Below are positions 1,100 to 19,600 of a DNA stretch of 19,763 bases, piece after piece; position 1 is the first letter of the stretch, and the number at the start of each line of letters is the position of its first letter. The position numbers and the translations under genes were made by a program. Origin of the DNA: a virus (taxonomy: Duplodnaviria; Heunggongvirae; Uroviricota; Caudoviricetes). The DNA is taken from the IMG/VR virus record IMGVR_UViG_2671180268_000002, one strand, 5' to 3'. The notes beneath the pieces were generated by a model. The model searched no databases. It was not told where the DNA came from and worked only from the letters and a program-made list of their open reading frames with translations.

Positions 1100-1158
1100 C
1101 ATGTAGATGATAATTATTATCATTTTGCGGGTCCTTTCCGGCGATCCGACAGGTTACG
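1100..1158 (+). promoter_or_regulatory. cosQ-containing region immediately upstream of the cosN nick
   Basis: Sequence ...GCGGGTCCTTTCCGGCGATCCGACAGGTTACG is nearly identical to the recalled right end of the lambda genome, which carries cosQ. Exact cosQ boundaries cannot be placed without alignment. Confidence 0.6.
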
Positions 1159-1170
1159 GGGCGGAAGGCG
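1159..1170 (+). other. cosN 12-nt cohesive-end segment, GGGCGGAAGGCG (lambda has GGGCGGCGACCT)
   Basis: Flanks match the lambda right end (..CAGGTTACG) and left end (CGCGGGTTTTCGCTATTTATGA..) on either side; the 12 nt between them differ from lambda at positions 7-10 and 12. Confidence 0.8.
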
Positions 1171-1210: not shown

Positions 1211-1324
1211 CGTTTCCGTTCTTCTTCGCCGTAACCTAATGTTTTTATTTAAAACACCCCCTGAAAAGAAAGGAAACGACAGGTGCTGAAAACGGGCTTT
1301 TTGGCCTCTGTCGTTTCCTTTCTC
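1211..1324 (+). promoter_or_regulatory. cosB: terminase small-subunit binding elements R3 (1211-1226), R2 (1268-1283), R1 (1308-1323), with an AT-rich IHF-type site (I1, about 1236-1262) between R3 and R2
   Basis: CGTTTCCGTTCTTCTT, AGAAAGGAAACGACAG and CTGTCGTTTCCTTTCT are seen directly; R2 and R1 are exact reverse complements. Arrangement and spacing match lambda cosB immediately upstream of Nu1. Confidence 0.85.
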
Positions 1325-1347: not shown

Positions 1348-1867
1348 ATGGAAGTCAACAAAAAGCAGCTGGCTGACATTTTCGGTGCGAGTATCCGTAC
1401 CATTCAGAACTGGCAGGAACAGGGAATGCCCGTTCTGCGAGGCGGTGGCAAGGGTAATGAGGTGCTTTATGACTCTGCCGCCGTTATAAGATGGTATGCC
1501 GAAAGGGATGCTGAAATTGAGAACGAAAAGCTGCGCCGGGAAGTTGAAGAACTGCGGCAGGCCAGCGAGACAGATCTCCAGCCAGGGACTATTGAGTACG
1601 AACGCCATCGACTTACGCGTGCGCAGGCCGACGCACAGGAGCTGAAAAATGCCAGAGACTCCGCTGAAGTGGTGGAAACCGCATTCTGTACTTTCGTGCT
1701 GTCGCGGATCGCAGGTGAAATTGCCAGTATTCTCGACGGGATCCCCCTGTCGGTGCAGCGGCGTTTTCCGGAACTGGAAAACCGACATGTTGATTTCCTG
1801 AAACGGGATATCATCAAAGCCATGAACAAAGCAGCCGCGCTGGATGAACTGATACCGGGGTTGCTGA

Positions 1868-1893
<26 letters not shown>
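1348..1893 (+). CDS. nu1: Terminase small subunit (gpNu1)
   Basis: 181 aa; MEVNKKQLADIFGASIRTIQNWQEQGMPVLRGGGKG... is essentially identical to lambda Nu1 as recalled; sits directly after cosB; overlaps A by 26 nt as in lambda. Confidence 0.97.
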
Positions 1894-5574
<3,681 letters not shown>

Positions 5575-15289: not shown

Positions 15290-16077
15290 ATGACAGAGAC
15301 AGAATCAGCGATTCTGGCGCACGCCCGGCGATGTGCTCCAGCGGAGTCGTGCGGCTTCGTGGTAAGAACGCCGGAGGGGGAAAGATATTTCCCCTGCGTG
15401 AATATCTCCGGTGAGCCGGAGGCGTATTTCCGNNNNNNNNNNNNNNNNNNNNNNNNNNNNNNNNNNNNNNNNNNNNNNNNNNNNNNNNNNNNNNNNNNNN
15501 NNNNNNNNNNNNNNNNNNNNNNNNNNNNNNNNNNNNNNNNNNNNNNNNNNNNNNNNNNNNNNNNNNNNNNNNNNNNNNNNNNNNNNNNNNNNNNNNNNNN
15601 NNNNNNNNNNNNNNNNNNNNNNNNNNNNNNNNNNNNNNNNNNNNNNNNNNNNNNNNNNNNNNNNNNNNNNNNNNNNNNNNNNNNNNNNNNNNNNNNNNNN
15701 NNNNNNNNNNNNNNNNNNNNNNNCTGGCGGGGATTGAGATGCCGGATTTTCATCGTGAGGATGACTGGTGGCGTCACGGTCAGAATCTCTATCTGGATAA
15801 TCTGGAGGCCACAGGGCTGTATCAGGTGCCGTTGTCAGCGGCGCAGCCGGGCGATGTGCTGCTGTGCTGTTTTGGTTCATCGGTGCCGAATCATGCCGCC
15901 ATTTACTGTGGTGACGGCGAGCTGCTGCACCATATTCCTGAACAACTGAGTAAACGAGAGAGGTACACCGACAAATGGCAGCGACGCACACACTCCCTCT
16001 GGCGTCACCGGGCATGGCACGCATCTGCCTTTACGGGGATTTGCAACGATTTGGCCGCCGCATCGACCTTCGTGTGA
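15290..16077 (+). CDS. K: Tail tip assembly protein gpK (JAB/MPN-like N-terminal part and NlpC/P60-like C-terminal part), interrupted by N-run 15433-15723
   Basis: Before the gap: MTETESAILAHARRCAPAESCGFVVRTPEGERYFPCVNISGEPEAYF. After the gap: LAGIEMPDFHREDDWWRHGQNLYLDNLEATGLYQVPLSAAQPGDVLLCCFGSSVPNHAAIYCGDGELLHH..., matching the lambda gpK C-terminal half. The two parts are in different frames relative to the N-run, so the gap length is not the true length. Confidence 0.85.
15433..15723. other. Run of 291 N (unresolved sequence) inside K
   Basis: Literal n characters; flanking K segments are out of frame relative to each other. Confidence 0.99.
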
Positions 16078-16646: not shown

Positions 16647-19600
16647 TGCAAANNNNNNNNNNNNNNNNNNNNNNNNNNNNNNNNNNNNNNNNNNNNNNNN
16701 NNNNNNNNNNNNNNNNNNNNNNNNNNNNNNNNNNNNNNNNNNNNNNNNNNNNNNNNNNNNNNNNNNNNNNNNNNNNNNNNNNNNNNNNNNNNNNNNNNNN
16801 NNNNNNNNNNNNNNNNNNNNNNNNNNNNNNNNNNNNNNNNNNNNNNNNNNNNNNNNNNNNNNNNNNNNNNNNNNNNNNNNNNNNNNNNNNNNNNNNNNNN
16901 NNGGAAAAAGACATCACCATTAAGGGCAAAACCACCTCGCAGTATCTGGCCTCGGTGGTGGTGGATAACCTGCCGCCGCGCCCGTTTAATATCCGGATGC
17001 GCAGAATGACGCCGGACAGCACCACAGACCAGCTGCAGAACAAAACGCTCTGGTCGTCATACACCGAAATCATCGATGTGAAACAGTGCTACCCGAACAC
17101 GGCACTGGTCGGCGTACAGGTGGATTCGGAGCAGTTCGGCAGCCAGCAGGTGAGCCGTAATTATCATCTTCGCGGGCGCATTCTGCAGGTGCCGTCGAAC
17201 TATAATCCGCAGACGCGGCAATACAGCGGTATCTGGGACGGAACGTTAAAACCGGCATACAGCAACAACATGGCCTGGTGTCTGTGGGATATGCTGACCC
17301 ATCCGCGCTATGGCATGGGGAAACGTCTTGGTGCGGCAGATGTGGATAAATGGGCGCTGTATGTCATCGGCCAGTACTGTGACCAGTCNNNNNNNNNNNN
17401 NNNNNNNNNNNNNNNNNNNNNNNNNNNNNNNNNNNNNNNNNNNNNNNNNNNNNNNNNNNNNNNNNNNNNNNNNNNNNNNNNNNNNNNNNNNNNNNNNNNN
17501 NNNNNNNNNNNNNNNNNNNNNNNNNNNNNNNNNNNNNNNNNNNNNNNNNNNNNNNNNNNNNNNNNNNNNNNNNNNNNNNNNNNNNNNNNNNNNNNNNNNN
17601 NNNNNNNNNNNNNNNNNNNNNNNNNNNNNNNNNNNNNNNNNNNNNNNNNNNNNNNNNNNNNNNNNNNNNNNNNNNNNNNNNNNNNNNNNNNNNNNNNNNN
17701 NNNNNNNNNNNNNNNNNNNNNNNNNNNNNNNNNNNNNNNNNNNTTGACCCGGATAACGGCTGGGAGACGGCGACAGAGCTTGTGGAGGATACGCAGGCCA
17801 TTGTCCGTTACGGTCGTAACGTCACGAAGATGGATGCCTTTGGCTGTACCAGCCGGGGGCAGGCACACCGCGCCGGGCTGTGGCTGATTAAAACGGAACT
17901 GCTGGAGACGCAGACCGTGGATTTCAGCGTGGGTGCTGAAGGGCTTCGTCATGTACCGGGCGATGTCATTGAAATCTGCGATGATGACTATGCCGGTATC
18001 CGCACCGGCGGGCGCGTGCTGGCGGTGAACAGCCAGACCCGGACGCTGACGCTCGACCGTGAAATCACGCTGCCATCCTCCGGCACCACGCTGATAAGCC
18101 TGGTTGACGGGCAGGGGAATCCGGTCAGCGTGGAGGTCCAGTCCGTCACCGACGGCGTGAAGGTAAAAGTGAGCCGTGTTCCTGACGGTGTTGCTGAATA
18201 CAGCGTGTGGGGGCTGAAGCTGCCGACGCTGCACCAGCGATTGTTCCGCTGCGTGAGTATCCGTGAGAACGACGACGGCACGTATGCCATCACCGCCGTG
18301 CAGCATGTGCCGGAAAAAGAAGCCATCGTGGATAACGGGGCGCACTTTGACGGCGACCAGAGCGGCACGGTGAATGGTGTCACGCCGCCAGCGGTGCAGC
18401 ACCTGACTGCCGAAGTCACCGCAGACAGCGGGGAATATCAGGTGCTGGCGCGCTGGGACACGCCGAAGGTGGTGAAGGGCGTGAGCTTCCTGCTCCGTCT
18501 GACCGTAACAGCGGATGACGGCAGTGAGCGGCTGGTCAGCACGGCCCGGACGACGGAAACCACTTACCGCTTCACACAACTGGCGCTGGGGAACTACAGG
18601 CTGACAGTCCGGGCAGTAAATGCGTGGGGGCAGCAGGGCGATCCGGCGTCGGTATCGTTCCGGATTGCCGCACCGGCAGCGCTGTCGCGGATTGAGCTGA
18701 CGCCGGGCTATTTTCAGATAACCGCCACGCCGCATCTTGCGGTTTATGATCCGACGGTACAGTTTGAGTTCTGGTTCTCGGAAAAGCGGATTGCGGATAT
18801 CAGGCAGGTTGAAACCACAGCACGCTATCTTGGCACGGCGCTGTACTGGATAGCCGCCAGTATCAATATCAAACCGGGCCATGATTATTACTTTTATATC
18901 CGCAGTGTGAACACCGTTGGCAAATCGGCATTCGTGGAGGCTGTTGGTCAGCCGAGTGATGATGCATCCGGTTATCTGGATTTTTTCAAAGGCGAGATAG
19001 GGAAAACCCATCTGGCTCAGGAGCTGTGGACGCAGATTGATAACGGTCAGCTTGCGCCTGACCTGGCTGAAATCAGGACGTCCATTACGGATGTCAGCAA
19101 TGAAATCACGCAGACCGTCAATAAGAAACTGGAAGACCAGAGTGCGGCAATTCAGCAGATACAGAAGGTTCAGGTTGATACAAATAATAACCTGAACAGC
19201 ATGTGGGCTGTGAAGCTGCAGCAGATGCAGGACGGACGCCTTTATATCGCGGGTATTGGTGCCGGTATTGAGAACACCCCTGACGGCATGCAGAGTCAGG
19301 TGCTGCTGGCGGCGGACAGGATTGCGATGGTTAATCCTGCGAATGGCAACACAAAACCGATGTTTGTTGGTCAGGGCGATCAGATATTCATGAACGACGT
19401 GTTCCTGAAACGCCTGACGGCCCCCACCATTACCAGCGGTGGAAATCCATCGGCATTTTCCCTGACTCCGGACGGAAAGCTGACCGCTAAAAATGCGGAT
19501 ATCAGTGGCAGTGTGAATGCGAACGCCGGGACGCTCAACAATGTCACGGTAAATGAAAACTGTACGATTAAGGGCATGCTGGAGGCGACTCAGGTCAGAG

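Follow-up and report, generated by a model that had tools for sequence, protein, structure and literature searches.

The window analysed here, a stretch of 19,763 nucleotides from a caudoviral IMG/VR record (IMGVR_UViG_2671180268_000002), covers the right-hand end of a lambda-like late region and then the genes nu1 through J. The features of its cos region and terminase genes, in window positions, are as follows.

1129..1135, + strand: cosQ, 7 bp, GGGTCCT, the packaging-termination signal; same sequence and offset as in lambda
1157..1158, + strand: CG dinucleotide beside the top-strand nick position, from sequence
1159..1164, + strand: cosN left half, bp 1-6 (GGGCGG); same as lambda by sequence and alignment
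1165..1170, + strand: cosN right half, bp 7-12 (AAGGCG versus CGACCT in lambda); the variant segment
1171..1172, + strand: CG dinucleotide, from sequence, beside the bottom-strand nick position, which lies between bp 12 and 13 (PMC9026076)
1208..1223, + strand: cosB R3, AGGCGTTTCCGTTCTT; equals lambda bp 50-65, at equal distance from cosN
1267..1282, - strand: cosB R2, a 16-mer, the inverted R sequence; equals lambda bp 109-124
1308..1323, + strand: cosB R1, a 16-mer; equals lambda bp 151-166
1348..1893, + strand: nu1, terminase small subunit (TerS), 181 aa; Pfam Phage_Nu1 (2.4e-101), full length
1868..3793, + strand: A, terminase large subunit (TerL), 641 aa, with ATPase and endonuclease domains; Pfam GpA_ATPase and GpA_nuclease

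All the sequence elements of a lambda-like cos are found here: the GGGCGG left half, both CG pairs, cosQ at its usual offset, R3, R2 and R1, and adjacent terminase genes. The window also shares with lambda the spacer, bp 11 of cosN and the spacing between cosN and R3. The 7-bp GGGTCCT is taken to be cosQ, corresponding to lambda 48473-48479. cosQ is a strongly conserved element of 7 bp (PMC4669245). R3 is delimited here as in an earlier description, in which TerS bound at this critical site anchors TerL to nick the bottom strand (PMC9026076). The interval between R2 and R1 (window 1282-1308) is one base shorter than in lambda. Outside the named subsites, window position 1193 carries an A-to-C difference from lambda at cos bp 35, which is also present in six loci with the variant 12-mer.

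The cohesive-end 12-mer at 1159-1170 reads GGGCGGAAGGCG, and its lambda counterpart is GGGCGGCGACCT. It is flanked by CAGGTTACG at 1150-1158 and by CGCGGGTTTTCGC at 1171-1183. The lambda reference (NC_001416) starts with GGGCGGCGACCTCGCGGGTTTTCGC, and the DE3 record labels GGGCGGCGACCT as 'cos site'. When the window is aligned without gaps to lambda/DE3 and to three other phages, the 12-mers fall in register. Five of the 12 bases are changed relative to lambda (bp 7, 8, 9, 10 and 12), all of them in the right half, and in-register matches are confined to bp 1-6 and bp 11. An earlier note on this DNA had claimed that the window differs from the lambda 12-mer between conserved cosQ and cosB flanks. 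Alignment to NC_001416 and DE3 bears out this claim, and both the lambda 12-mer given in the note and its coordinates were correct. With 5 of 12 bases different, GGGCGGAAGGCG falls outside the cohesive-end identity group of lambda, 21 and others that carry GGGCGGCGACCT.

The flanks provide a measure of background divergence, with nine differences from lambda in the left 100 bases and six in the right 100. At this rate, the chance that six adjacent bases include at least five changes is ~7e-6 per position, or ~1e-3 over 200 positions. Since five right-half changes are improbable at the flank rate, they form a true cluster rather than scattered drift. An origin of AAGGCG by a small inversion was considered and rejected, because inverting CGACCT would give AGGTCG instead.

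Natural variation of cosN

Differences at bp 7-12 are common across lambda-like phages (Feiss et al. 2015, PMC4669245). N15 and phiD326 differ from lambda at bp 9 and 12, Gifsy-1 differs at bp 8, 9 and 11 (PMC4669245), and the variant GGGCGGCGCGCT has been reported for LLS and mEp213 (PMC12315714). Selection has been reported on cosQ, the left half and the nick-flanking CG pairs, but not on bp 7-12, and many right-half cosN mutations have a minimal phenotype (PMC4669245). For example, G2C cuts the yield tenfold, whereas the symmetric C11G is without effect, an asymmetry attributed to the anchoring of TerL via TerS at the adjacent cosB (PMC4669245). A survey of natural cosN variation (Vahanian et al. 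2017, Virology 509:140), as summarised in a paper that cites it (PMC9303873), showed high conservation of the first four bases and of the two bases to either side.

The closest comparison is with N15, whose record annotates a 12-base 5' extension, GGGCGGCGTCCG, as unlike that of lambda. N15 cosN has in common with the window the left half, a G at bp 12, the CG that follows the overhang, and variation restricted to the right half. It lies two positions from lambda (bp 9 and 12) and four from the window. As for the surroundings, N15 cosN is accompanied by a simple cosB and a divergent terminase, and the window site by the complex cosB of lambda and a near-identical lambda terminase. Gifsy-1, phiD326 and mEp213/LLS likewise combine a conserved left half with a variable right half, but they show two or three differences from lambda and the window allele shows five, more than any of these cited functional examples. 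The window site is a further natural allele of the documented right-half variation of cosN.

The same allele recurs widely. The exact 34-mer site is present in 14 IMG/VR contigs. When the 12 cohesive-end bases were left free in a scan, whose figures refer to the matches listed, the lambda 12-mer predominated among those matches and other alleles were present. An exhaustive scan for sites with a base other than T at position 12 gave GGGCGGAAGGCG in about 26 IMG/VR contigs, along with GGGCGTCAGGCG (6 loci), GGGCGTCAGACG and GGGCGGCGACCC. Additional alleles seen were GGGCGGCGACCG, GGGCGACGACCT and GGGCGGAGACCT, the last in phage PhiR70_1. Across this allele survey, bp 1-5 and bp 11 are constant and variation is found only at bp 6-10 and bp 12. 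From IMG/VR and other records, 30 loci with GGGCGGAAGGCG were collected, with at least eight upstream junction sequences and two downstream contexts.

Prevalence in E. coli was determined with a 48-nt query in which each 28-base seed must include AAGGCG+CG. In cos context, AAGGCG+CG occurs in 158 of 5,426 complete genomes (~3%; 153 chromosomal and 16 plasmid places), which are not phylogenetically independent; a cos of any kind of the lambda family occurs in 3,451 complete E. coli genomes. The identity bands of a 56-nt query were dropped for this purpose (its '>=99%' band comprised 4 full-length and 42 partial matches).

The identical 12-mer is also found in phage PhiR46_1 (listed host E. coli ECOR13), in Ravinvirus YDC107_1, and in phage-plasmids of ~46 kb such as pAH01-1. 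In these the left flank is slightly altered, reading GGCAGGCTACG. We infer from its record metadata that PhiR46_1 is viable. The PhiR phages presumably derive from Brenes & Laub 2025. In E. coli APEC E14033, the allele lies within a very lambda-like prophage adjoining ybhC.

The phage-plasmids merit separate description. YDC107_1 is assigned to Ravinvirus, the genus of N15. These ~46 kb elements (PhiR46_1, YDC107_1, pAH01-1 and others) combine the window 12-mer with a complex cosB of lambda type and with Nu1 and gpA that resemble those of lambda, and they have neither the simple cosB nor the cohesive end of N15. The presence of a lambda-type packaging module on phage-plasmids shows that the module is exchanged between integrating and plasmid prophages. 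A search for phage records that begin at GGGCGGAAGGCG found none and gave no partial end-of-record matches, and a full-text literature search for this and the related 12-mers found no match in a phage context.

Terminase, nicking and end annealing

Both terminase subunits are close to those of lambda. Nu1 of the window departs from lambda Nu1 by K48R, A75T and L132I (98.4% identity), and gpA from lambda gpA by T151S, D185E, L404R and T466I (99.4% identity). The remaining head and tail genes, W to I, are all full length and 94-100% identical to their lambda counterparts.

Lambda-like packaging specificity resides in the R sites of cosB and the recognition helix of TerS (PMC4669245), the helix comprising residues 17-24 and the wing residues 31-39 (PMC9026076). 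All three Nu1 substitutions lie outside the helix and the wing, and by sequence the R sites, recognition helix and wing are the same as in lambda. Lambda TerL is, moreover, equally active on cosN-lambda and cosN-N15 (PMC4669245). The suggestion of the earlier note that the divergent 12-mer bears on packaging specificity therefore finds no support in the unchanged R3, R2 and R1, in the position of the Nu1 changes, or in the equal cutting of a cosN with right-half changes. As specificity is set by cosB and Nu1, it should stay that of lambda.

A second suggestion, that the ends would not anneal with those of lambda, is reasonable. The predicted duplex free energies are -18.6 kcal/mol for variant with variant, -19.0 kcal/mol for lambda with lambda and -9.5 kcal/mol for variant with lambda, and in the best predicted variant-lambda duplex only the 6-bp left block (bp 1-6) is paired. 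For comparison, the predicted value for lambda with N15, a pair that is experimentally viable, is about -15. By these predictions, cross-annealing of variant with lambda ends should be poor.

We compared gpA and Nu1 between 13 loci with the variant allele and 36 with the lambda allele, all with clean gpA, and no residue of either protein is fixed with the allele. gpA is clean and full length in all 13 variant-allele loci in which it could be read, and the allele is accompanied by either of two Nu1 sequence types. T466I, which is also common with lambda cosN (9 of 36 loci), is over-represented among the variant loci (12 of 13), and L404R occurs in 3 of the 13 variant loci and in none of the 36. 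Both residues are within the endonuclease domain, although the pattern may merely reflect linkage. One terminase paper was searched for the catalytic residues of the gpA nuclease, relative to which L404R and T466I could be placed, and it gave none. With no gpA residue fixed in the 13 variant loci as against the 36 lambda-type loci, no dedicated nuclease change seems needed, and a required compensatory change in gpA or Nu1 was rejected. The enrichment of T466I leaves room for a permissive terminase background for the variant cosN.

The anatomy of the site, the repeated occurrence of the allele and undisrupted terminase genes point to a natural cosN allele that is probably functional, set in an otherwise lambda-type packaging module and cut at the usual positions; for the nick positions and for function, we draw on homology and on the genetics of lambda and N15. 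Nu1 would bind the unaltered R3, R2 and R1 of cosB. Bound at R3, it would place gpA so that the bottom strand is nicked between bp 12 and 13 and the top strand ahead of bp 1. Virion DNA would then have 12-base 5' overhangs, GGGCGGAAGGCG at the left end and the complement, 5'-CGCCTTCCGCCC, at the right end. Because both ends would come from one duplex site, they would always be complementary, and the genome would circularise normally. With lambda-type ends, they would pair over bp 1-6 only.

This mutual complementarity would leave cosN substitutions free of a cost in self-cyclisation, so alleles could drift stepwise. The weak constraint on the right half presumably arises because TerL is anchored by the neighbouring cosB, which would let this segment diverge alongside a constant cosQ, left half and nick-flanking CG pairs. 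The allele adds a well-populated natural case to the known freedom of the right half of cosN in the lambda family. It speaks for, and not against, the model in which anchoring through TerS and cosB frees bottom-strand nicking from dependence on sequence.

Satellites and other readings of the right half

Lambda-family cos sites are also carried by satellites. In Gram-negative phage-inducible elements of the PICI family (Rpp-type), cosQ and cosN are of the lambda family and cosB is different (PMC9026076). For the experimentally packaged PICI EcCICFT073, cosN has been described as one that 'resembles' or is 'nearly identical' to that of lambda. Among the loci collected here, satellite-type cos sites carry GGGCGTCAGGCG in four cases and the window 12-mer in one. 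The window differs from these in having the lambda cosB followed by full-length nu1 and A, and it is accordingly a phage cos rather than a satellite cos.

In APEC E14033 (NZ_CP126948; locus L149, 26156-38457), the prophage major capsid gene E is split by an element of ~11 kb that encodes an integrase, a primase, an SSB and its own E-like and D-like genes. An element of the same kind at a further locus (L108, 3526-8545) carries the cos GGGCGTCAGGCG followed by a truncated Nu1-like (Rpp-like) open reading frame. Elements that split E in this way match the helper-embedded PICI type '11capE' (PMC10111431). A 47-kb IMG/VR contig, 3300029068_000041, possesses both a lambda-type phage cos with GGGCGGCGACCT and a satellite-type cos with GGGCGTCAGGCG (loci L092 and L163). 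The two alleles on this contig indicate that a helper and its embedded satellite can differ in their cohesive ends.

Another reading is that GGGCGGAAGGCG is selectively maintained as a second cohesive-end compatibility group, spread over lambda-like prophages, N15-like phage-plasmids and Rpp-type satellites. We consider this unlikely, as we do the corresponding proposal that such a group would prevent end annealing, or products of mixed-concatemer packaging, among co-resident prophages and satellites. The allele is discrete, its five changes occurring together with few intermediates in the survey; it persists in ~3% of complete genomes; and it has spread among lambda-like prophages, N15-like phage-plasmids and a satellite-type cos. 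The predicted stability of the hetero-duplex with lambda ends is halved, and even a 2-base end mismatch, with which chromosomes are viable, lowers the yield about fourfold (PMC4669245). However, the published interpretation is a plain lack of constraint on bp 7-12 (PMC4669245), and incompatibility could bring only an indirect benefit, since the cos sites of a rolling-circle concatemer, all from one genome, always match. Related alleles also exist (GGGCGTCAGGCG, GGGCGTCAGACG, GGGCGGAGACCT and GGGCGGCGACCG), and the lack of phylogenetic independence weakens the argument from the genome counts. Were the group real, it would be a barrier to, or a marker of, the exchange of DNA ends between co-resident lambda-family elements, and not the product of neutral drift.

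The earlier note had raised another alternative, a degenerate cos in a defective prophage, in which the right-half changes would be damage that is irrelevant without packaging. This is highly improbable. K and J do look broken in the list of open reading frames, and E is interrupted in APEC E14033, which carries the allele. The breaks in K and J, though, are runs of N at 15433-15723 (291 bases), 16653-16902 (250 bases) and 17389-17743 (355 bases), and a truncation of the prophage in these genes was rejected. The runs mark the window as a gapped draft scaffold, and the gaps are uninformative on the integrity of the prophage. Their lengths do not match the corresponding lambda distances, which produces false frameshifts and a spurious antisense open reading frame of 567 aa at 17308-19011. 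Outside the gaps, Nu1, A and the remaining head and tail genes are complete and as close to lambda as noted above, and in APEC E14033 E is interrupted by an embedded satellite that belongs to a known, excisable type (PMC10111431).

Decay would also be expected to look different at the site itself. It would not leave cosQ, the left half, the CG pairs and R3, R2 and R1 untouched and yet alter five of six adjacent bases, nor would it yield one 12-mer in 158 complete genomes with many backgrounds. In place of the private, scattered mutations and disrupted packaging genes of a degenerate cos, we find a shared allele with changes at bp 7-12 only, beside intact nu1 and A.

The right-half changes might instead shift or abolish the bottom-strand nick, giving ends that differ in position or length from the 12-base overhang, but the chance of this is very slight. 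At bp 12, which adjoins the bottom-strand nick, T is replaced by G, and the right half has lost some of its rotational symmetry with the left half: pairs 2/11, -1/13 and -2/14 are kept, and pairs 3/10 and 6/7 are lost. N15 likewise has a G at bp 12, however, and an annotated 12-base 5' extension. Moreover, the bottom-strand nick is placed by anchoring of TerS at R3 and is insensitive to base changes (PMC4669245), and both the sequence and the spacing of R3 are unaltered, as is the CG after bp 12. The G at bp 12 of N15 and the unchanged R3 spacing thus make a shifted nick unlikely. Finally, the idea that errors of sequencing or assembly in the draft scaffold produced the 12-mer, prompted by the three N-run gaps in the window, can be given almost no credence, because the identical sequence is present in independently assembled complete genomes, phage records and metagenome contigs, and the same site in independent assemblies is not an assembly error.

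If the site is, as we favour, a functional cosN allele, the virion DNA of such phages, and cosmid arms made with their ends, would not anneal or ligate with lambda-type ends, and a lambda-type terminase probably cuts both lambda and variant sites. Tools for finding prophage or phage termini that are keyed to the lambda 12-mer will miss variant sites. A separate group of matches came from assemblies of non-enterobacterial organisms, namely Raphidiopsis brookii D9, an Aeromicrobium sp. and plasmid unnamed3 of Alicyclobacillus fastidiosus, which contain only a lambda cos cassette of ~400 bp. The cassette consists of lambda 48299-48502 joined to 1-199, with ~99% identity, and from its sequence looks like leftover cosmid or fosmid vector.
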